Shown one piece after another: positions 5,873-32,000 of a stretch of 32,000 nucleotides of DNA (the first letter of the stretch is position 1; each line of letters starts with the position of its first letter). Source of the DNA: Akkermansia muciniphila ATCC BAA-835 (GTDB lineage Bacteria; Verrucomicrobiota; Verrucomicrobiia; Verrucomicrobiales; Akkermansiaceae); contig NC_010655.1 of assembly GCF_000020225.1 (NCBI RefSeq), positions 2,070,001 to 2,102,000 on the forward strand, in the 5' to 3' direction. The translations under genes were made by a program, and so were the position numbers. The notes under the pieces were generated by a model. It was not told the DNA's origin and did no database searches. It saw nothing but the letters and a program-made list of their open reading frames with translations.

Positions 5873-6232
5873 TGGTGGAGGCGACGGGAGTCGAACCCGT
5901 GTCCTGAAGGCCATTGATGACAGCATCTCCATGTTCAGACGCATATTGCTGCTTTCGCGGCTGCTTCGCTATGCGTCAACTAGGCAAGCTCGCTAGTTGC
6001 CTGTGGAAGTCTCGTGCGTTGCGCGGCAACCCCGCATTGCACCAGCCTGCTGTGTCTTCGTCGTCCCCTCTAGCAGGCGTTGAGGTTCTGACGCGGCTGA
6101 ACTAATTAGGCAGCCAGAGCAAGGTCGTTAGACTCTGCATTTATTTTTTTAATCGGCTTTTTAGAAGGCCAGCCGATTAACCTTCACATGCAGCCAGCAC
6201 CGCAGACTTCCAGTCGAAACCATGGCGCCCCC
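5873..6232 (-). ncRNA. ssrA: tmRNA (SsrA), tag reading frame AESNDLALAA-stop at 6138..6106
   Basis: The reverse strand starts GGGGGCGCCATGGTTTCGAC and ends GGAGTCGAACCCGTCGCCTCCACCA. The acceptor GGGGGCG/CGCCTCC has the G3-U70 alanine identity pair. Internal ..AAUAAAU GCA GAG UCU AAC GAC CUU GCU CUG GCU GCC UAA gives a canonical ..ALAA degradation tag. Confidence 0.92.
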
Positions 6233-9112: not shown

Positions 9113-9205
9113 GGAGCGGTGGCTGAGAGGCTGAAAGCACTCCTTTGCTAAAGGAACGTACTGGCAAAACCGGTACCGAGGGTTCGAATCCCTCCCGCTC
9201 CGCCA
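9113..9205 (+). tRNA. tRNA-Ser(GCU), class II, CCA encoded
   Basis: GGAGCGGTGGCTGAGAGGCTGAAAGCACTCCTTTGCTAAAGGAAC..long variable arm..GGGTTCGAATCCCTCCCGCTCCGCCA. Very close in layout to E. coli tRNA-Ser(GCU), with anticodon loop UU-GCU-AA. Confidence 0.9.
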
Positions 9206-9222
9206 AAACCTTTCTTTTTTTA

Positions 9223-9256
9223 AGAGCCTGCATCTCCATGGTGCAGGCTCTTTTTC
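9223..9256 (+). terminator. rho-independent terminator after tRNA-Ser
   Basis: 10-bp stem AGAGCCTGCA (9223-9232) / TGCAGGCTCT (9242-9251) followed by TTTTT. Confidence 0.75.
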
Positions 9257-9764
9257 TTTGCAAGCCAGGGGATTAGATGCTGGGTAATTATTTGCTGGTC
9301 TGATTGTCTTATTTTAGTTTTTTATTTTTTCATTTGAAGTTGAATAACTTATACAAAAAACGCCGGTTAGGATGCCTAGTCAGCGTTTTTTCTAATATCC
9401 TTATTATAGGCATCAGGATAATTATAGGTGCATTTGAAAAAAGGTCTGGACTGGAACCCGTCCCTACGGGTGTTTTTTGTTCATGATGATATAAAATTTT
9501 GAATGTACGTCAGTTGTTGCAGGAGATGGATAGGATAAAACTGCCGTGGCTGGTAAAAGTGGAGAGTGCCCGGTGTTGAATGGACACGAACGTGGTTCAT
9601 GCGCCGGCCTCGGAGTGGTTCACGACTGCACCAGATATGTTAACAGATTCATAATGTGTGGGAAAGGATGGAACAGCCACTTCAGAATGGGCTCTGTCTT
9701 TTTTTTAATCTGCGGAAGATTTAACGGATTTTGGAATAATCTGGTGTTATCAATAATCAAGACC

Positions 9765-10487
9765 ATGAATAACAATATTGAAGAACATCCTATCCAATTT
9801 GAAGCAGATATGATTCGGGCATTGCTGCAGGAATACAGCACTCCCGGCGAGTACAAAAATCAAACCCGCCGCACAAGCGGCCTGAACCAGTTTAATGAAC
9901 TCCCTGAAGCTTTGAAAGAAAGAGGGTGGGAGATTCAGGAATTCATAGAAGAGTCCGGCTTGTGGCTGGCTGTTTCCGAGGAAGGAAGCGGAAAGTTTTC
10001 AGATATTTTTATCCCGTGGATTGAATGTCCCTACGGGAAAGTTGGCGACCGTTTGTGGGTGCAGGAGGAGATTTGCCATAATAGCCGTTCTGGATGGCTT
10101 TATTCTGCTGATGGCGTTTGTTTGCCAATGTCATATCCAGACGGATGGATATTAGAAGATGCCCGCAGGCAGTTTATTCCTTCGATCCACATGCCGCGTT
10201 GGGCTTCCCGGATTTTACTGGAAATTACGGAAATCAGAGTTGAGCGGCTTTTGGACATTACGACGAACGATGCACGGATGGAGGGCATTGAATGCGTCTG
10301 GAACGATGAAGAAACGGATGCCTGTTTATGGAGGGATTACTCGGGAAAATCTGCGGGGTTGGCTTTTGCCCGGTTATCTTTCTTTTCCTTGTGGGAAAAA
10401 ATAAAGGGAACCGGTTCCGTTGAACTGAATCCGTGGGTATGGGTTATTAAGTTCAATGTGTTAACTATCAACGGAAATATCAAATAA
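9765..10487 (+). CDS. phage-type conserved hypothetical protein (ASCH-like family commonly carried by prophages)
   Basis: The ORF track gives 9546..10487. I prefer the internal ATG at 9765 (MNNNIEEHPIQFEADMIRALL..KNQTRR), because the family as I remember it starts there. Remembered family hallmarks are PYGKVGDRLWVQEE and PSIHMPRWASRILLEITEIRVERLLDIT..DARMEG. It sits in an AT-rich tract next to tRNA-Ser. Confidence 0.6.
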   Translation: MNNNIEEHPIQFEADMIRALLQEYSTPGEYKNQTRRTSGLNQFNELPEALKERGWEIQEFIEESGLWLAVSEEGSGKFSDIFIPWIECPYGKVGDRLWVQEEICHNSRSGWLYSADGVCLPMSYPDGWILEDARRQFIPSIHMPRWASRILLEITEIRVERLLDITTNDARMEGIECVWNDEETDACLWRDYSGKSAGLAFARLSFFSLWEKIKGTGSVELNPWVWVIKFNVLTINGNIK

Positions 10488-23359: not shown

Positions 23360-23597
23360 GGGAAAAGGATAAAAAATTTGCTTGAAGCATTTTAGCAACT
23401 TGAAGAACCGGGAGCAAGGAGGAAAGGTGCATTCCCGGTTGCTTTTCCTTTATCCGGATCGGTCTCGGAAGCCTTTCCCGGCTCGGTACGTTTTTTATGG
23501 GAAGAGTATTGTTTTTCATGGGATTGTCTGGATTTGGCGTTATCTCCTGCGAAGGCGTTTCCGCAAACCAGCTGTTCCGATATTTACTTACTGATGA

Positions 23598-23846
23598 ATG
23601 GGCCTGGTGGGCAGCAACATCTTCGGACGAGAAGCGCTGGCGGAAATCCGCGTGAACGCGGCGCAGGACCTGGGAGACCGGAGGGGGGAAACGAACGTCT
23701 CTCTGCTGGGCAACCCCGGCTTTGCGCAAAGCGTGAGGGGAGCGAAAGTGGGAACGACGGCGCTGCAGCTGGGAGCCGGACTGAGCGTGCCGGTGGGAAC
23801 GAAGGGAACCATCTATGTGAACGGGAACGCGGACATCCGTGACGGG
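23598..23846 (+). repeat. 249-bp direct repeat, copy A (partner 29557..29805)
   Basis: Hand alignment at offset 5959 with no gaps and 6 mismatches, all at third codon positions. Confidence 0.95.
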
Positions 23847-23893
23847 GCTGCTCAGTAAACGGGACGTATCAGCTACTGCTACGATTTCTGGTC
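23598..23893 (+). pseudogene. 5'-deleted remnant of an autotransporter beta-barrel C-terminus (paralog of 24322..29850)
   Basis: 23598-23846 matches 29557-29805 at 243 of 249 nt. In-frame homology continues in degraded form to 23893, with a premature TAA at 23856-23858 and loss of the terminal ..YRHDF-stop (here ..YCYDFW..). No passenger domain or signal peptide lies upstream. Confidence 0.85.
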
Positions 23894-24057
23894 TTTGCTC
23901 CGAACTTGCTGCGGGCAAACAATACACCCTCTTTTTCTATGTATGAAAGGTGAAATTCACGAAAGGTGTTATTTTGCTGCATCGTTTGTTCAGGAATAGG
24001 GAAGGGATGAAAAATAATTTTTGCGTCCATTTTTATTTTCATGTGAAATGTTGCATT

Positions 24058-24074
24058 GCGGATTAGCAATCCGC
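24058..24074. promoter_or_regulatory. distal 17-bp dyad site D1 (GCGGATT-AGC-AATCCGC)
   Basis: Perfect 7-3-7 palindrome. Its reverse complement recurs at 24233-24249 (15/17 including the centre). Confidence 0.6.
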
Positions 24075-24226
24075 AGAAGCATTATCCAGAAAATAGACCA
24101 GAATCAGATATTTTTGATGTTTATAATGAAAGAGATATGGAATGTTTTTTTGAAAAAATTCTGAATTGGATATTAAGAAGATGATGATTTCCTGGTATGC
24201 AACATGCATTGGATCAATGTTAAATA

Positions 24227-24255
24227 TTGACGGCGGATTGCTAATTCGGTAATAG
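24227..24255 (+). promoter_or_regulatory. putative promoter of autotransporter 1 with proximal dyad site P1 as its spacer
   Basis: TTGACG (24227-24232), then the 17-nt GCGGATT-GCT-AATTCGG (24233-24249), then TAATAG (24250-24255), 66 nt upstream of ATG 24322. Confidence 0.5.
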
Positions 24256-24321
24256 CTATATATTGCAAACAGCCAATCAGGACGGCTGGATAGCTTTATT
24301 ATTTACCCATATTTGCAAGTT

Positions 24322-27300
24322 ATGAAGTTACGTCTACCGCTCAAGTTGTTGTCCGCCTTATTGTCGTTTTATGCCATATCCGGTTTTCATGTGTTCGCTG
24401 CTACGGAGTGGGACGGCAGCAGATATTCCGGTAATATCTATACGTGGGTAGGGAGTTCGTCCAATGATTTTCATAACGGCGGCATTGTCCTGACCAATCC
24501 GGATGGAACATACGGTCCTGTCAATACGAATTGGGGTTCCGTTTCAGAGGAGGGGAGTATTTGGAACCTTTTTGCCAATGAAACGGGACTGTCGGAATAT
24601 AACACATTGCGCTTTGTCGCATCAGGCACGGAAGTGGGCGATGTCACCGTATCGGCGACCAATAAAAATCCATCCTGCTCCTTTACGCCATTTACCATGG
24701 GGGGATTGATTGTGGAGGAAGGGGCATCAGGGTTCTCCCTTGTCCCGAACAATAATGCCCAGAGGACTCTTATACTGGGGAGAGCGGGTACGGAAGAGCC
24801 GGTATTATTTACGGTTCGTGAAGATTTTTCCCTGGGTTCTTCCTCCAATGCATGGGGCCCGGTTAATGTGAATGCAGACTGGAATGTCCTTGTGGCAAAT
24901 GGCAAGACGCTGAATGTTTACGGGGCACTGAATTCTTCCGGCCGGACCATTACGGTGGGCGGGGAAGGATTCAGCGGTACGTTGGTTTTAAACAATGCGG
25001 CCAATGCATCCATGACTGCTGAATGGGTCATCACCTCCGGCTCTACTGTAAGGTGCATGAATAATTCCGCTTTGGGAAGCGGCCTTGTTACGCTGGATGG
25101 GGGGACGCTTGATTTTAACTCGCAAACGATCGGATCAACCATTACGTTGAACATGAGCGGGACCGGGACATTGCAGAATGTGACAGTTGATGGAGCAATT
25201 TTATCTTATACGTCTTCATCGGGAAATGATGGGATTACTGCTTCAAATACCACGTGGACGTCCGGGAAGATAGATATTGGGCGTTTGTTGCAGGGATTTA
25301 GTGCCGAAGGTTCCAATACCGTTGATTTGGGAGCGGAGCTTGGCGAGGGCTTTAGCGTACTGGGTTTAGATACAGGGCAATACAGAATAGAAGGCAGCGT
25401 GCTGACGATAGAAGACGGGGCGATATCCAGCGTGACGTGGGTATCTGCGGGAGAAGGAGGGGAATTGGAAGAAACGGTCAAGAACGCCTTTACGCTGGCT
25501 CTTGGGGAGGGGAGTGCGGCCAACGTCAGCCTGGGATATCTGAACGGGACCCTGACGACCAGCGGGGACAAAGTCTATCAAATCACCAACACCGGCGGAA
25601 CCAAAATCAACCTGTCCGGAGTATACAACAGCGGGGCGACCCTGCCGTCCGGCAACCTCAACTACCAGGGGGACATCTGGATGGACATCAACGGAGGAGC
25701 ATTCGGCATCATCGCCGGAGGTGTCACCAATGAATGGGGCACCAACCTCCAGACCAGCACGCTGACTGGGGACACCCATGTGCAGCTCTCTGGAAACGCC
25801 ACGGCGGAACACGTCATCGGCGGGAACAACAAGGGAGCAAGCACTACCCTGACGGGAAACACCAACGTTACCGTCAAAGATAACGCCATCGTGGCGGGAG
25901 CCATCATCGGAGGAAGCACCTCCTCCCACAATGCCGTCACCACCATCACAGGAAACACGAGCGTCCTGGTCACCAACATCCAGCACAGCAACAGCGCGAC
26001 CGTCAACCTGGGAGACTTCGGCAACGTCACAGCCCAAAACTTCATCACGGGCGGAAGCGCGTGGACGGCCAACCAGACTTCAGGAACGACCATCCAGGGC
26101 AACACCTCGGTAACGATTAATGTAGGCGATGCGGAACTCTCCGGCACGGAAGGGCACAACAACTTCGTCAAAAACATCTATGGAGGCAGTTACGCAAACA
26201 CGAAATCCGAGGGCAACGGAGCCGTACAAAAAGTGGAAGGAAACTCAAGCGTCTCCATCAGCGGAAAAGAAGGAATCACCTTCACGGGAGACATCATGGG
26301 CGGCTCCTTCTGGAACTGGGGCAACGGCACGACGCTGACCACCAACGGAAACACCAGCGTCTCCATTGACGGAGGTTCCACCTTCACGGGCAAAATCGTG
26401 GGCGGCTCCTGGAGAGGAAGCACGTGGACGGCGGAAGATCCCACAGCCCTGCCCGTCAGCATTGGCGGCAACATCACCGTCACCCTTGGACAGGGCACCT
26501 ACCTGGGAGACATCTACGGGGCGGGCAACTGTGGCACGGTAGGAGGCGAAGTCCACGTCTCGCTGACGGGAGGAAGCATCTTTGGGGAGGAAGGAGAAGA
26601 AAGCGGCATCACCATCGGCGGAAGCGCCGGAGCGGCGGTAGAAGGAAACAGGACGCTGGAACTCAAGGGAACCTTTGGAACCGGGGACTTCCAAAACGTC
26701 ACCTTCACCCGGTTTGATGAAATCAATATCGCGCAGGAAGAAACCTCGGCCACCATCTACGCGCTGACCGACAGCCCGGCCCTGACCAAAACGGGAGCGG
26801 GAACCCTGACACTCGGGGCGGACGCGGCAGGAGCGGAAACCATCCTTGACGGAACTACGGAAGGAATCACCATCTCGGAAGGCAGCCTGAACCTCTCCGG
26901 CGCCGGCGGCAGCCATATGAAAGGAACGTGGAACATCGCCTCCGGCTCCCGTCTCACCGGAGTCAGCGGAACCGTAACCGTAGGAGAAGGAGGCCTGGAC
27001 GGACTGACCATCGCCCTGGGAACGGAAAACATCGGCCAGGACACGCAGGCGTCTGGCGCCGTCATCATCAACGGCAGCGGAACGGGAAGCGACCCGAACC
27101 TGTCCATAGAGGGGGAAGGGCTGACGCTGGACCTGAGCAACGACGCCGTCGTCAACCTTCTGCTGGACCACAAAACCGACGACTCCTCCAGCTACCTGAC
27201 CCTGACCAGCGGAACGCTGACCGTCGGCGACCTGGGCGACATCGCCTTCACTACCGACCTTCTGTCCAACTACGGCATCCGGGTCACCGGAACGGACGGA

Positions 27301-29850
27301 GGCAGCCTGGTGCTCAGCGGAGCGGCCACCGGCCTCTACCGCGTGCAGGAGGAAGGAGGAAACGCCCATGAAGTCAACTCCTATCAAACGCTCTCCGGCT
27401 ACGCCGGCGTCGTCATCGGCGGCGGCCAGACCCTGACGGTCAACCTGGCCGGAGCCCCGGGCGAATCCGACGGACAGGGAGCTAAAATCAACAACCTGAT
27501 GGGAGCCACGGGCAGCAGCCTGGTCGTCAACAACACCGGAGACGGCACGGCCGTCGTCATCCTCAACAACAAACAAATGACGACGGGAGAAGACGACATC
27601 GACCCGGCCGGCCAGGACACCGTCATGGGCGGCAGCATCACGGGAGGCAACAACGTCGCCTTCATCAAGGAAGGAACCGGGACGCTGACGGTCGGAGGAA
27701 CGATGGACGTGGAAACCCTCGCCCTGCGTGAAGGAAACATCGTCCTCAACGGCGCGTCAAACACCCTGGACACCCTCACTCTGGAAGGAGGCGGCCTGAC
27801 CATTAACGGCAACGCCGAAGTCGGAACCATCACCGGCACGGAAGCCGGAGGCTCCCTGACCATCCAGGGAACTCTCAACCTGACCGGAACAGGCGAAATA
27901 AACGACGGCTCCATCACCGGAACCGGCACCCTCCGCATCCAGGAAGGAGCGGAACTGGCCCTGGGCGGAGAAGCCCGGCTGGACGGAACCTCAGTCACCG
28001 CCGACGGCACGCTGGCCCTCTCCGGAACGGAATCCGGCGCCATCATCAGCCTCTCCGGCAGCGGCACCCTGTCCATGAACGGAGGCAGCCTCTCCATCTC
28101 CTCGGCAACAACCTCCTCCGGAACCTTCTCCGGCACGCTGGCAGGCAGCGGCACCCTGGACATCTCCGGGCAAGCCACCCAATACCTGCAAACCGGCAAT
28201 AAGGACTACGACCTCGCCGTCCGTGACGGAGGCGTCCTGGTCCTGAAAGGCACCGCGGACGCCCCCACGCTGAACTACAACAGCATCACCGCCGGAAACA
28301 ACGGCACCCTGCGTATTGAAGCCACCGGAGACGCCCAGGGCAGCGCCAACACCACGCTCAACGTGGAAAGCATCACCTTCCAGAACGGCTCCACGACGGA
28401 ACTGATCTACAACTTCAACCAGGACGCCCCCTTTGGCGCCCCCATGCTGACGGCGGATACCATCACCGTGCAGGACGGAGCCGGCTTCCTCCTCTCCAAC
28501 ATGGAAGGAAACGCCGCCATGAACGCGGGGAGCGACCTCCATGACGTCATCCTGATGAGCGCTACCGGCAGCATCAGCGGCCTGGAAGACGGGCAAAGCC
28601 TCGCCGCCCGGATATCCGGCCTCTTCGCCGTCTACTACCAGGACGCCACGCTGAACCGCGACGGAAACGACATCCTGCTCAATGCCACACTCCGGCAGGA
28701 AAACCTCTTCGCCTCCGCGGCCGACACGTGGAACTCCGCCGCCGGAGCCAGCCTGCTCTGGGAAGCCCGCAAAAACCTGGACCCCGACTCCCAGCTGGCC
28801 CAATTCATGAACGGCGTCAGCACCATGATCAATGACGGCAACCTCTCCGGAGCCACCCGCGCTATGGCGGCGGCAGCTGGGAGCACGGTCAACGCGCTGG
28901 GGACGGCGCAGAGGGACGCCCTGCGCGACCAGATGGGCTGGATCAGGAACCGGACCACCCTCATGGGCGTCAACCCGGCCTACGTCAACGACGACCTCCC
29001 CCGCTTCCACATGTGGATGGAAGGCACGGGCTCCTACGCCAAACTGGACACCCGCGGGGATGAAAGCGGCTACCAGCTCACCACCTGGGGAGGTACGGTA
29101 GGCGTGGACGCGGACCTCAGCGACCGCCTCACAGTGGGAGCGGCCTTCACGGCCAGCTACGGCGACCTGACGGCCGGCGCGGCGGACAGCGCCGACGGGC
29201 ACCTGGACAGCTACTACGCCAGCCTCTTCGGCCGCTACCAGGACAGGCGCTGGGCGCACACGCTCATCCTGACGGGAGGGTGGAACGACGCGAAACTCAA
29301 CCGTACGGTCAACTACGGGGAAGGAAGCTACGGGACGCAGGGAAGCACCAGCGGGTGGGGCTTTGGAGCGATGTATGAACTCACCTACGACGTATACCTC
29401 AACGAAAACCGCAGCAGCGTGCTGCAGCCGCTGTTCAACGCCTCGGTGGTGACGACGCGGATGGACGGCTATGAGGAAACGGGTGCGGGCAACGCGGGCC
29501 TGAACGTCGGCAGGCAGGACTGGACGACGGGGACGCTGGCGCTGGGCGGCCGGTGGATGGGCCTGGTGGGCAGCAACATCTTCGGACGAGAAGCGCTGGC
29601 GGAAATCCGAGTAAACGCGGCGCAGGACCTGGGAGACCGGAGAGGGGAAACGAACGTCTCTCTGCTGGGCAACCCCGGCTTCGCGCAAAGCGTGAGGGGG
29701 GCGAAAGTGGGAACGACGGCGCTGCAGCTGGGAGCCGGACTGAGCGTGCCGGTGGGAACGAAGGGAACCATCTACGTGAACGGGAACGCGGACATCCGTG
29801 ACGGGTCCAGCGCGCTGAACGGAAGCATCGGCTACCGCCACGACTTCTAA
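24322..29850 (+). CDS. giant autotransporter (type Va) surface protein: signal peptide, ~1500-aa beta-helical passenger with PATR-type repeats, C-terminal 12-strand beta-barrel
   Basis: The ORF track begins at TTG 24313. ATG 24322 gives MKLRLPLKLLSALLSFYAISGFHVFA/ATEW, parallel to the paralog at 30318. The passenger is G/T/N/S-rich with ..LTKTGAGTLTLG.., ..FIKEGTGTLTVGG.. and repeated GNTSVxI coils. The beta-domain runs from about 28990 (FHMWMEGTGSYAKLD..GYQLTTWGGTVGVD..) to the terminal ..GSIGYRHDF (aromatic C-terminus). Confidence 0.92.
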   Translation: MKLRLPLKLLSALLSFYAISGFHVFAATEWDGSRYSGNIYTWVGSSSNDFHNGGIVLTNPDGTYGPVNTNWGSVSEEGSIWNLFANETGLSEYNTLRFVASGTEVGDVTVSATNKNPSCSFTPFTMGGLIVEEGASGFSLVPNNNAQRTLILGRAGTEEPVLFTVREDFSLGSSSNAWGPVNVNADWNVLVANGKTLNVYGALNSSGRTITVGGEGFSGTLVLNNAANASMTAEWVITSGSTVRCMNNSALGSGLVTLDGGTLDFNSQTIGSTITLNMSGTGTLQNVTVDGAILSYTSSSGNDGITASNTTWTSGKIDIGRLLQGFSAEGSNTVDLGAELGEGFSVLGLDTGQYRIEGSVLTIEDGAISSVTWVSAGEGGELEETVKNAFTLALGEGSAANVSLGYLNGTLTTSGDKVYQITNTGGTKINLSGVYNSGATLPSGNLNYQGDIWMDINGGAFGIIAGGVTNEWGTNLQTSTLTGDTHVQLSGNATAEHVIGGNNKGASTTLTGNTNVTVKDNAIVAGAIIGGSTSSHNAVTTITGNTSVLVTNIQHSNSATVNLGDFGNVTAQNFITGGSAWTANQTSGTTIQGNTSVTINVGDAELSGTEGHNNFVKNIYGGSYANTKSEGNGAVQKVEGNSSVSISGKEGITFTGDIMGGSFWNWGNGTTLTTNGNTSVSIDGGSTFTGKIVGGSWRGSTWTAEDPTALPVSIGGNITVTLGQGTYLGDIYGAGNCGTVGGEVHVSLTGGSIFGEEGEESGITIGGSAGAAVEGNRTLELKGTFGTGDFQNVTFTRFDEINIAQEETSATIYALTDSPALTKTGAGTLTLGADAAGAETILDGTTEGITISEGSLNLSGAGGSHMKGTWNIASGSRLTGVSGTVTVGEGGLDGLTIALGTENIGQDTQASGAVIINGSGTGSDPNLSIEGEGLTLDLSNDAVVNLLLDHKTDDSSSYLTLTSGTLTVGDLGDIAFTTDLLSNYGIRVTGTDGGSLVLSGAATGLYRVQEEGGNAHEVNSYQTLSGYAGVVIGGGQTLTVNLAGAPGESDGQGAKINNLMGATGSSLVVNNTGDGTAVVILNNKQMTTGEDDIDPAGQDTVMGGSITGGNNVAFIKEGTGTLTVGGTMDVETLALREGNIVLNGASNTLDTLTLEGGGLTINGNAEVGTITGTEAGGSLTIQGTLNLTGTGEINDGSITGTGTLRIQEGAELALGGEARLDGTSVTADGTLALSGTESGAIISLSGSGTLSMNGGSLSISSATTSSGTFSGTLAGSGTLDISGQATQYLQTGNKDYDLAVRDGGVLVLKGTADAPTLNYNSITAGNNGTLRIEATGDAQGSANTTLNVESITFQNGSTTELIYNFNQDAPFGAPMLTADTITVQDGAGFLLSNMEGNAAMNAGSDLHDVILMSATGSISGLEDGQSLAARISGLFAVYYQDATLNRDGNDILLNATLRQENLFASAADTWNSAAGASLLWEARKNLDPDSQLAQFMNGVSTMINDGNLSGATRAMAAAAGSTVNALGTAQRDALRDQMGWIRNRTTLMGVNPAYVNDDLPRFHMWMEGTGSYAKLDTRGDESGYQLTTWGGTVGVDADLSDRLTVGAAFTASYGDLTAGAADSADGHLDSYYASLFGRYQDRRWAHTLILTGGWNDAKLNRTVNYGEGSYGTQGSTSGWGFGAMYELTYDVYLNENRSSVLQPLFNASVVTTRMDGYEETGAGNAGLNVGRQDWTTGTLALGGRWMGLVGSNIFGREALAEIRVNAAQDLGDRRGETNVSLLGNPGFAQSVRGAKVGTTALQLGAGLSVPVGTKGTIYVNGNADIRDGSSALNGSIGYRHDF
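29557..29805 (+). repeat. 249-bp direct repeat, copy B (partner 23598..23846)
   Basis: See copy A. It lies inside the beta-barrel coding region of the intact gene. Confidence 0.95.
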
Positions 29851-29910
29851 CAAGAAAGAAAACACAAGGAGAGGCCCCCCACCCCCGAAAGGCCTTCCTC
29901 CTGACCCTCC

Positions 29911-29943
29911 AGAGCCGTTCCGGAATTATTCCGGAACGGCTCT
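29911..29943 (+). terminator. terminator hairpin after autotransporter 1
   Basis: A 33-nt near-perfect palindrome AGAGCCGTTCCGGAAT-T-ATTCCGGAACGGCTCT, 60 nt after the stop. The downstream T-run is weak (GTTGCTT). Confidence 0.6.
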
Positions 29944-30057
29944 GTTGCTTAGGGGAATCCCGCTAAGCCGATACGGTGCGGGGAGGTAGTTTTTACAATA
30001 TATTGGAATGATTTTTATTAAAATAGTTTTTTCACCGCAGTCGCTTGAATTCGTAAA

Positions 30058-30074
30058 GCGGATTAAAAATTCGC
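30058..30074. promoter_or_regulatory. distal 17-bp dyad site D2 (GCGGATT-AAA-AATTCGC)
   Basis: Same motif as D1. Its reverse complement recurs at 30237-30253 (15/17 including the centre). Confidence 0.6.
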
Positions 30075-30230
30075 CGTGTAATGGGAACCGGGCCAATATA
30101 CCAGAGTTGCCCCGCCTGTTTGCTTATACTGATAAGGATAGAACGATGGATGCCCCTGATTCCAGACCAGATAAAGCATGGAAATACTCTTCTGGATGAT
30201 GCGCAACACCTACGGAATCAATGTTTAAGC

Positions 30231-30259
30231 TTGTAGGAGGATTTTTAATCCGCTAATGA
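30231..30259 (+). promoter_or_regulatory. putative promoter of autotransporter 2 with proximal dyad site P2 as its spacer
   Basis: TTGTAG (30231-30236), then the 17-nt GAGGATT-TTT-AATCCGC (30237-30253), then TAATGA (30254-30259), 58 nt upstream of ATG 30318. The geometry is the same as at 24227-24255. Confidence 0.5.
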
Positions 30260-30317
30260 TGGTAAAAAGCCTCCTGTCAGTTTTGGGAGGAATTTCACGT
30301 ACGCCCTTTTAAAAACT

Positions 30318-32000
30318 ATGAAGTTGCACCTCCCTTTAAGTCTTTTGTCCTCCCTGCTTGCCTGCATGGCTGCTGTTTCCTCACCGCATGCCGTTGCGGA
30401 AACCTATACATGGCTGGGGGGGACGGTGGATGTTCATTTAAATACTAACTGGACTCCGGATTACGGCAGCAGCAACTGGTCGGCAACATGGGCCGGAACG
30501 GCGACAAACAGCATGCGTTTTGATGCGGGTAGCATGACGGGGCAGGTCAAGGCTCTCCAGGCTTCTTTCAATACGCTTTCACTTGGGGGAATAACCGTTA
30601 CGGATAATTCCGATGGATTCAGCGTTTCCAAAAGCAACGGCTCCAACCGCACCGTTAATTTACGTGATGGAGGAGAAGGGTATACGCTGTTTGACATAGG
30701 CGGGGATTTTTCTCTGGGAGTTGCCAGCCAGGTATGGAACGGAGTTGTTTTCAACTCCAGCGCCCTGTTTAACATTGCCTCCGGCAAGACCATGAATATT
30801 TACGGTGGTCTGGGAATGGCTGGAACGGGAGCCAGGACGATGACGGTGGGGACGGACGGTTTTGCGGGAACCCTTATCCTGAATACGGCTGCCCAGTCTT
30901 CCATGACGGCTGATTGGGTCATTTCCCATGGGGCGACCGTTCAACTGAACAATGCCGCGGCTTTGGGGTCCGGATCGGTCAGCTTAAACGGCGGCAATAT
31001 AACGGCCCAGCACGATGCTGTTTATAACAATGCCCTGGCCGTGAGCGGTTCTTCCGGCATGAACGTGAATGCTGCCACGCGGTTTGCCAGTGTCAGCCTT
31101 TCCAATGCCGCTGTCCTGAACATGAACGGAGGGACGCTTGGCATTGCGAATGCCGGCGTTTTGACACTGGGTTCTTCAGGGACCATTACGGGGAATTTGA
31201 CGCTGGGAAACACGTCTCTCCTGAATTTTTCCGCTCTTCCGGCTTCCGGATCATATTTGCTTAATGTAACAGGAACGCTGACCGTGGGCAGTGAATTGCT
31301 TCTGGGGCAGGAAACGATGGAAGGCGTAGCCTGGACGGAGGGTTCCTACAGTCTGGTTCATGCGGGTTCCGTAGAGGGAGTCCCTGCCAGCTCTTTCGTT
31401 CTGGGCGACAATCTTCTGGGTTCATGGAGCACGGAAAACAATAATCTTACCCTGGTTGTGGAGCAGGTGGCTTTGCTTGAATGGAAAGGCGGCGACGGGA
31501 TATGGTCTGTAACTGCTCCGGCTTCTTCACCGTGGAAAAATGAAGGTGTGTACAATAATGCTTCCGGAGTGGTCATGGGAGATATTGACGGAAGTTCTCT
31601 GCAAACAGTAACCATTGATGGAGTTGTCTCTCCCTCAATCATGATGGTCCAGGCGGATACGACGGATTATGTGTGGAATGCCGCAGATGAAGGAGGTGCT
31701 CTGGAAGGCAGCGGTAATCTGGAGAAGACCGGCAGTGCCAAGCTGACCATTAATATGGATAATGCTGATTATGCCGGAAAGGTCATTTTGGGGGGTGGAA
31801 CGCTTGAAATGGGGAATGATGCCGCTTTAGGCACAGGTGATCTGGCATTTGACGGCGGTACCCTCCGGTATGGAACAGGGGTAACGGCGGATATTTCCGG
31901 GCAGATTTCCACAACGAGCAAAAGTTCCGTGAAGGTGGATACCAACGGTAATAACGTAAGCTGGGCTTCCGCGGATCATTACAAGGCTCTGAACTTGGAA
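30318..32000 (+). CDS. autotransporter-family surface protein paralog, 3'-truncated by the window edge
   Basis: Absent from the ORF track. It is open from ATG 30318 to base 32000 (561 codons): MKLHLPLSLLSSLLACMAAVSSPHAVA/ETYTWLGG.. Homology to gene 1: TLILNTAAQSSMTADWVISHGATVQLNNAAALGSGSVSLNGG versus TLVLNNAANASMTAEWVITSGSTVRCMNNSALGSGLVTLDGG. PATR motif: LEKTGSAKLTI..GKVILGGGTLEMGNDAALGTG. Confidence 0.88.
   Translation, partial: MKLHLPLSLLSSLLACMAAVSSPHAVAETYTWLGGTVDVHLNTNWTPDYGSSNWSATWAGTATNSMRFDAGSMTGQVKALQASFNTLSLGGITVTDNSDGFSVSKSNGSNRTVNLRDGGEGYTLFDIGGDFSLGVASQVWNGVVFNSSALFNIASGKTMNIYGGLGMAGTGARTMTVGTDGFAGTLILNTAAQSSMTADWVISHGATVQLNNAAALGSGSVSLNGGNITAQHDAVYNNALAVSGSSGMNVNAATRFASVSLSNAAVLNMNGGTLGIANAGVLTLGSSGTITGNLTLGNTSLLNFSALPASGSYLLNVTGTLTVGSELLLGQETMEGVAWTEGSYSLVHAGSVEGVPASSFVLGDNLLGSWSTENNNLTLVVEQVALLEWKGGDGIWSVTAPASSPWKNEGVYNNASGVVMGDIDGSSLQTVTIDGVVSPSIMMVQADTTDYVWNAADEGGALEGSGNLEKTGSAKLTINMDNADYAGKVILGGGTLEMGNDAALGTGDLAFDGGTLRYGTGVTADISGQISTTSKSSVKVDTNGNNVSWASADHYKALNLE

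Follow-up and report, generated by a model that had tools for sequence, protein, structure and literature searches.

The intergenic region in front of the gene for autotransporter 2 of Akkermansia muciniphila ATCC BAA-835 (locus 2) very probably carries an inverton, i.e., a short DNA segment flipped in place by a site-specific recombinase, and this inverton is of the known kind with the motif CGGATT..AATCCG; we estimate the probability of this reading at about 0.87. The 162-bp segment between the two recombination sites exists in nature in both orientations, and the breaks fall within the two 17-bp sites. The earlier note, made from the letters of this DNA alone, had interpreted the region as an inverton, and this interpretation is now backed by inverted assemblies and by a catalogue of site pairs.

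In addition, we tentatively suggest a more specific scheme consisting of three parts. The repeat may be the spacer of a split promoter, whose −35 element would be moved off a fixed −10 element or toggled between divergent −10 elements; the central triplet of each site may act as an address in a 7-bp overlap with the geometry of an anticodon arm; and a dedicated recombinase together with a small protein may form a master switch. If the triplet indeed provides an address for each locus, one recombinase could flip dozens of invertons without cross-recombination.

Organization of the locus

The window is the whole stretch of DNA that was analysed (32 kb), and L numbers denote the loci collected in the analysis. 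The features are given in Table 1. Coordinates and letters of D2, P2, TTGTAG, TAATGA and the start codon had been proposed in the earlier note, and all of them were exact on re-reading the sequence. D2 and P2 are 179 bp apart from start to start, each with one mismatch to GCGGATT-N3-AATCCGC, and the inverton is located 64 nt upstream of the gene for autotransporter 2.

Table 1. Coordinates of the switch region, its neighbours in the window, and the recombinase modules of other Akkermansia species (window positions unless a locus is named).
Feature	Position	Strand	Remarks
D2, distal recombination site (left inverted repeat)	30058-30074	.	GCGGATTAAAAATTCGC = GCGGATT-AAA-AATTCGC; extended arm 30057-30075
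Invertible segment, 162 bp	30075-30236	.	Both orientations present among assemblies
−35-like hexamer TTGTAG	30231-30236	+	Gene-proximal end of the segment, flush with P2; predicted function
P2, proximal recombination site (right inverted repeat)	30237-30253	.	GAGGATTTTTAATCCGC = GAGGATT-TTT-AATCCGC; also the 17-nt spacer of the predicted promoter
−10-like hexamer TAATGA (or AATGAT 30255-30260)	30254-30259	+	Fixed, outside the segment; weak
Autotransporter 2, 5' part, cut by the window end	30318-32000	+	Predicted regulated gene; ATG at 30318, 58 nt past TAATGA
Perfect 17-bp hairpin, 3' of the autotransporter 1 stop codon	29910-29944	+	Arms 100% complementary, 1 nt between them
Autotransporter 1, 1842 aa	24322-29850	+	PF03797, E 2e-40
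Sister inverton of autotransporter 1	24058-24249	.	D1 24058-24074, segment 24075-24232, P1 24233-24249
Sister inverton hexamers	TTGACG 24227-24232; TAATAG 24250-24255		
Recombinase/inverton/small-gene modules	L055:5814-7272, L091:111-1469, L105:4315-5726, L109:3547-5223, L110:1978-3370, L115:5772-7386		

A search for GCGGATT-N3-AATCCGC with at most two mismatches found exactly four sites in the 32-kb window, namely D1, P1, D2 and P2, while 0.29 sites are expected by chance from shuffled sequences and none of 100 shuffles reached four. Over the eight half-sites the mismatches are 0, 0, 0, 2, 0, 1, 1, and 0, and the tally given in the earlier note was right. The central triplet is AGC in D1 and GCT in P1. 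A repeat search found inverted arms both at locus 2 (30057-30075 and 30236-30254; 19 nt, 89% complementary) and at the sister locus (16 nt, 94%, 174 bp apart). One point of the earlier note has to be amended: as each site is itself a palindrome, D2 and P2 are inverted relative to each other only in the central triplet and in the bases flanking the sites.

The intergenic regions of the two loci had been described as diverged homologues; they do align as such, with a common block, ATCAATGTT..AA..TTG, beside the proximal site in both. No Rfam or tRNA match was found in the switch region by Rfam and tRNA scans. A further inverted repeat of 13 nt (92%) pairs the left half and the centre of P2 (30235-30247) with the start of the 5' untranslated region (30263-30275), and it would alter upon inversion.

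The protein sequence of autotransporter 1 is identical in 12 contigs, including complete genomes of the A. muciniphila type-strain lineage. Autotransporter 2 is cut by the end of the window; its full length is 1953 aa, with a weak PF12951 match and PF03797, in L002-L005 and L007. A third, remnant autotransporter C-terminus is found just upstream of the sister inverton at 23595-23889; it is 93% identical to 29554-29848 and is called as an ORF of 83-86 aa with a weak PF03797 match. Assembly GCA_900185005.1 (L006:8624 onward) lacks both autotransporter 2 and its inverton: its match to the window breaks off immediately behind the hairpin (window 29945 onward), and a lepA-type gene follows a short way downstream. 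Elsewhere, a tmRNA gene is located on the minus strand (5873-6232), and the window contains a total of four tRNA genes.

Inverted copies and the point of strand exchange

A search for assemblies captured in the opposite orientation, as the earlier note had suggested, yielded three loci for locus 2 (L014, L019 and L020) and one for the sister locus (L007). The former three are independent metagenome contigs in which positions 30075-30236 are exactly reverse-complemented while the flanks are unchanged. The alignment of L019 with the window consists of a forward block (23796-30070), a reversed one (30254-30057; 99%) and a second forward block (30241-32000), and L014 has the same structure. L020 is likewise inverted and comes from a more distant Akkermansia (77-82% identity). 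In L014 and L019 the distal flank CGTAAA is followed by the proximal end of the segment, read in reverse complement.

The metagenome contigs were searched for the junction that an inversion would leave. As the sites are palindromic, the junction pattern also matches a normal P2 read on the other strand, and 11 of the 14 matches represent the ordinary orientation. A contig was counted as inverted only if it had the D-side flank CGTAAA (L014, L019) or the inverted block structure (L020).

At the sister locus, the 158-bp segment 24075-24232 is exactly reverse-complemented in the complete genome CP024740.1 (L007:2758-2911), which otherwise differs there only by four deleted bases. Seven isolate genomes carry autotransporter 1; this one is inverted and the other six have the window orientation.

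The inverted contigs allow the exchange to be placed within the site. In L014 and L019, the position of D2 reads GCGGATTAAAAATCCTC, the inner half being swapped with that of P2, and in the inverted contigs the position of P2 reads GCGAATTTTTAATCCGC. The half-site variants at positions 2/4 and 14/16 change partners, meaning that the exchange falls within site positions 5-13. Strand exchange thus takes place inside the 17-bp core, between positions 4 and 14.

The central triplet in other Akkermansia

One genome from each species was searched for pairs of sites at a distance of 145-175 bp, with any centre allowed; A. muciniphila itself is outside the matches listed. These matches include 17 Akkermansia or Akkermansiaceae pairs, with paralogous and orthologous copies counted once each where obvious. 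Among the matches listed, the two sites are 163-182 bp apart, and the central triplet has no mismatches between partners in all 17 pairs, representing 11 triplet types. By comparison, the partners disagree at positions 1 and 17 in 8 of the 17 pairs, also among the matches listed. The centre is free to vary between loci and never varies within a pair, as is required of a strand-exchange region. Partner sites always have an identical central triplet.

The key observation of the earlier note had been that the centres at the two window loci are reverse-complementary within each pair. The same is true of all 17 Akkermansia pairs and 11 centre types among the matches listed. Single sites at unrelated promoters, which the note had named as a sign of an ordinary regulator motif, are not what is seen in Akkermansia: the sites there occur in pairs at the distance given above.

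The metagenome-assembled genome Akkermansiaceae U.3_4 has 18 paralogous invertons with an interior of 163-164 bp and the same repeat, including the centre TTG/CAA (L044, L045, L048, L054, L057, L065, L085, L096, L118, L123, L125, L128, L130, and L133). The presence of one common centre in these copies argues against a strict address of one triplet per locus. The one exception to reverse-complementary centres among the Akkermansiaceae comes from the same genome: L104:33-226, located at a contig start, has direct centres (CAA/CAA) at a distance of 177 bp and may have arisen when two invertons with a common centre recombined.

Matches of the scan outside Akkermansia were set aside as candidates for the same system, as they comprise dense hairpin arrays, multi-hairpin repeats and tandem tRNA-Phe genes. 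Dense arrays of GCGGATT-GCA/TGC-AATCCGC with a period of ∼35-90 bp occur in Bacteroidota, Chloroflexota and Cyanobacteria (e.g., L027, L067, L083, L092); by their appearance they are repetitive extragenic hairpins and have no relation to the paired sites of Akkermansia. The multi-hairpin repeats are found, among the matches listed, in other Verrucomicrobiia. In the tandem tRNA-Phe genes of Arsukibacterium (L102:4772-5009), the 17-mer is the anticodon arm, with a 5-bp stem GCGGA/TCCGC and a 7-nt loop TT-GAA-AA. As the anticodon arm of tRNA-Phe is the same 17-mer, the inverton site has the geometry of an anticodon arm, with the variable triplet at the position of the anticodon.

Putative split promoter

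Among the matches listed, 13 of the 17 invertons have a sequence matching TTGACA in at least five of six positions flush with one inner end, and never with both; about 0.3 of the 34 inner ends would be expected to have it by chance. On the outer side, a TAnnnT box (TATGCT, TATACT or TAATCT) is flush with the repeat in 15 of 34 flanks among the matches listed, with ∼1.6 expected by chance. On the side of the −10-like box there is a gene reading away from the inverton, typically one encoding an autotransporter or a signal-peptide protein. With TTGAC flush inside and TAnnnT flush outside, the 17-bp repeat would have the place of a promoter spacer. From this arrangement we infer that inversion moves the −35 element and leaves the −10 element in place, with the repeat serving as the spacer between them.

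Both states of the promoter, assembled and separated, are represented among the assemblies. In U.3_4, 16 of the 18 copies are separated, TTGACA being at the end remote from the TATGCT flank, and are predicted to be OFF; flipping would yield TTGACA-17-TATGCT. For the cps1 inverton of the type strain, the orientation primer given in the literature has the sequence ..TATTGACACCG, with CCG after TTGACA, which fits the split-promoter plan.

The claim of the earlier note that P2 fills a promoter spacer holds at the level of the family, but the hexamers of locus 2 itself are weak. The family element at the inner end is TTGAC[A/G/C], of which TTGTAG at locus 2 has kept only TTG. Both TTGTAG and TAATGA match the consensus in three of six positions, there is no T at −7, and a consensus scan called no promoter at this locus.

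By analogy with the family, the −35 element of locus 2 (TTGTAG and the conserved block upstream of it) would be inside the segment, and the −10 element (TAATGA) and the gene would be fixed. In the window orientation the promoter would then be assembled and autotransporter 2 is predicted to be ON, a state assigned from the inverton family; after inversion, TACACG would take the place of the −35 element and the gene is predicted to be OFF. The hairpin at 29910-29944, just behind the gene for autotransporter 1, is a possible terminator, albeit not a canonical one, as its GC-rich stem is followed only by TGTTG; the consensus scan called no plus-strand terminator there. If this hairpin does terminate transcription, autotransporter 2 needs its own promoter.

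An inverton with no split promoter is unlikely, though it has several points in its favour. The segment of 162 bp might contain a whole promoter reading through P2, similar to fimS or the capsule switches of Bacteroides, or else a terminator or roadblock. The weak hexamers of locus 2, which escaped the scan, would be accounted for in this way, and PMC11892184 reports a "promoter motif" inside these invertons. Moreover, the block ATCAATGTT..AA is kept at both loci upstream of the −35 element, and so the segment carries more than a hexamer. The family is difficult to reconcile with a complete internal promoter, however: in most members TTGAC is flush with the repeat and leaves no −10 element between the two, a TAnnnT box follows immediately beyond the repeat, at a distance of exactly 17 nt towards the gene, and in several members no more than 13-35 nt separate the repeat from the start codon.

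Other explanations of the site pairs and orientations

The opposite orientations at locus 2 could, in principle, be fixed differences between strains or errors of assembly, with no active reversible switch. The counts were obtained from consensus assemblies of different samples and reflect a difference between samples: the segment is inverted in 3 of 14 metagenome contigs and in none of the 6 isolate genomes, the remaining 11 contigs and all isolates having the window orientation. Still, the k-mers used in assembly are usually longer than the repeats of 17-19 nt, and an assembler could not produce an inversion without reads spanning the junction. Three independent assemblies agree, the flanks being 97-99% identical to the window, and the sister locus, which has the same sites, flips in the type strain over mouse generations (PMC11892184). 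We thus consider fixed differences or assembly errors improbable, and an active inverton remains the preferred reading.

Even less credit is due to the possibility that the unit of ∼197 bp is a miniature transposable element with terminal inverted repeats and that the site pairs are its insertions. The 18 paralogous copies of U.3_4, with identical repeats and interiors 73-87% identical (ungapped, over 17 copies of 163 bp), do resemble such an element, but the polymorphism is one of orientation at a fixed position and not of presence or absence, and the copies keep a constant distance to the paralogous surface-protein genes downstream of them, with which they probably spread together.

Finally, the 17-bp palindromes are hardly conceivable as operators of a dimeric transcription factor, one at the promoter and one upstream for looping: each site is indeed a perfect or near-perfect 7-3-7 palindrome, one of them overlaps the promoter core, and the spacing of 179 bp is ∼17 helical turns, but the segment is physically inverted at both loci with break points within the sites, and the centres of the sites, paired at 163-182 bp, are reverse-complementary within pairs and yet differ among loci, which an operator does not need.

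Candidate recombinase

In six Akkermansia species among the matches listed, an inverton with the same motif is located between a divergent PF00589 tyrosine recombinase gene and a small gene. The recombinases are 300-352 aa long (PF00589, E 5e-10 to 3e-14), and their ATG is 14-35 nt from the repeat. Of the residues expected in such enzymes they keep Arg, Lys, Arg, His and Tyr, but the place usually taken by the first His is occupied by Asp (DVLRHT), which is a point against the proposed mechanism. The opposite gene encodes a protein of 76-82 aa, which had no Pfam or NCBIfam match and by eye looks like a ribbon-helix-helix protein. A good −10 box is present on the small-gene side, and in five of the six assemblies the end with the −35 element is directed towards the recombinase gene.

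The occurrence of this module in six Akkermansia species makes a tyrosine recombinase of this family the best invertase candidate, and we infer from the gene arrangement that it may serve the whole inverton family. The recombinase family is comprised of 447 clusters at 50% identity (E up to 1e-30). The best 120 matches of two large protein searches contained only MAG proteins of "Akkermansia sp." and no A. muciniphila member, nor did two viral-contig scans yield one. A tblastn search of the loci collected in the analysis with the recombinase as the query returned only the six known copies.

No recombinase domain was found among the ORFs of the 32-kb window. The ORF 9546-10487, located beside tRNA-Ser, was considered as an integrase and rejected, as it is unrelated to the recombinase family. 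It belongs to a region of low GC content (9113-10487; 43%) consisting of tRNA-Ser and this 313-aa ORF without a family match.

In the proposed mechanism, a tyrosine recombinase encoded elsewhere in the genome would bind the palindromic arms of D2 and P2. Strands would be exchanged in the central region, probably within a 7-bp overlap TT-NNN-AA, where the partners would have to be identical. An odd-length core of 5+7+5 fits a 7-bp overlap, as in lambda Int and integrases targeting anticodon loops. Serine recombinases act on sites of even length and cross over at the two central base pairs. A serine invertase of the Hin/Gin/Mpi type was rejected, as the 7-3-7 site has an odd length, its symmetry axis falls on a base, and no resolvase domain is present among the window ORFs.

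Relation to known systems

Many invertons are known in Akkermansia; their motif CGGATT..AATCCG comes from Jiang 2019, cited in PMC13343947, which also reports that the cps1 capsule locus is phase-variable. In PMC11892184, "group 138" unites 32 invertons of ATCC BAA-835 that have a promoter-like motif and are enriched near PEP-CTERM proteins. The main text of that paper names an inverton at 2092093-2092109-2092267-2092283. D1 and P1 are at ∼2,092,094 in CP042830.1, and, given the 16-nt arms, their distance of 174 bp and a position within 1-2 bp of D1/P1, the published inverton is the sister locus, 6 kb upstream of locus 2, for which flipping at the level of reads was reported (PMC11892184).

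Locus 2 resembles this family in the organism, motif, size (163-182 bp) and in having a cell-surface or autotransporter neighbour, and there is no essential difference. It has the motif pair, occurs in both orientations, and is intergenic, upstream of a surface-protein gene. The inverton family and the neighbouring locus are already published, and locus 2 is confirmed rather than new.

Similar to Cre/loxP, FLP/FRT and lambda-type systems, locus 2 has inverted arms around an asymmetric centre that is identical in the partners and sets the orientation. Tyrosine-recombinase cores in inverted orientation give inversion, and the exchange at locus 2 is inside the central 9 bp. Unlike the Cre/loxP-type site of 34 bp with a spacer of 6-8 bp, the site at locus 2 is 17-19 bp, with an odd length and only three asymmetric bases.

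Escherichia coli fimS, inverted by the tyrosine recombinases FimB/FimE, is also a short invertible promoter element that turns a surface adhesin ON and OFF. However, the 314-bp fimS element contains the whole promoter and has adjacent recombinase genes, whereas at locus 2 the promoter appears to be split by the repeat, and there is no recombinase gene within 24 kb upstream. With its −10-like element outside the repeat and no adjoining recombinase gene, locus 2 was rejected as a switch of the fimS type. Bacteroides invertons, inverted by the Mpi serine or Tsr-type tyrosine recombinases, are likewise numerous in a genome, share one motif, control surface structures of a gut commensal, and depend on recombinases acting in trans, but differ from locus 2 in the repeat motif, promoter type and phylum.

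Significance

As the family and the neighbouring locus have been published, confirming the switch at locus 2 adds little on its own. The mapping of the exchange to positions 5-13 goes beyond the main texts of PMC13343947 and PMC11892184. The repeat as a promoter spacer, the strict identity of the centres and the recombinase/small-gene module also go beyond the main texts of both papers, and we regard these three as leads from sequence comparison. If the first of them is correct, the ON or OFF state would be readable from any assembly, depending on whether or not the TTGAC end adjoins the TAnnnT flank. The second, that partner sites share one centre, is a testable requirement. The third offers a candidate invertase family for a group to which the main texts of PMC13343947 and PMC11892184 assign no recombinase.

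A. muciniphila is under development as a probiotic, and its colonisation differs among strains. Phase-variable autotransporters and other surface proteins likely contribute to these differences.
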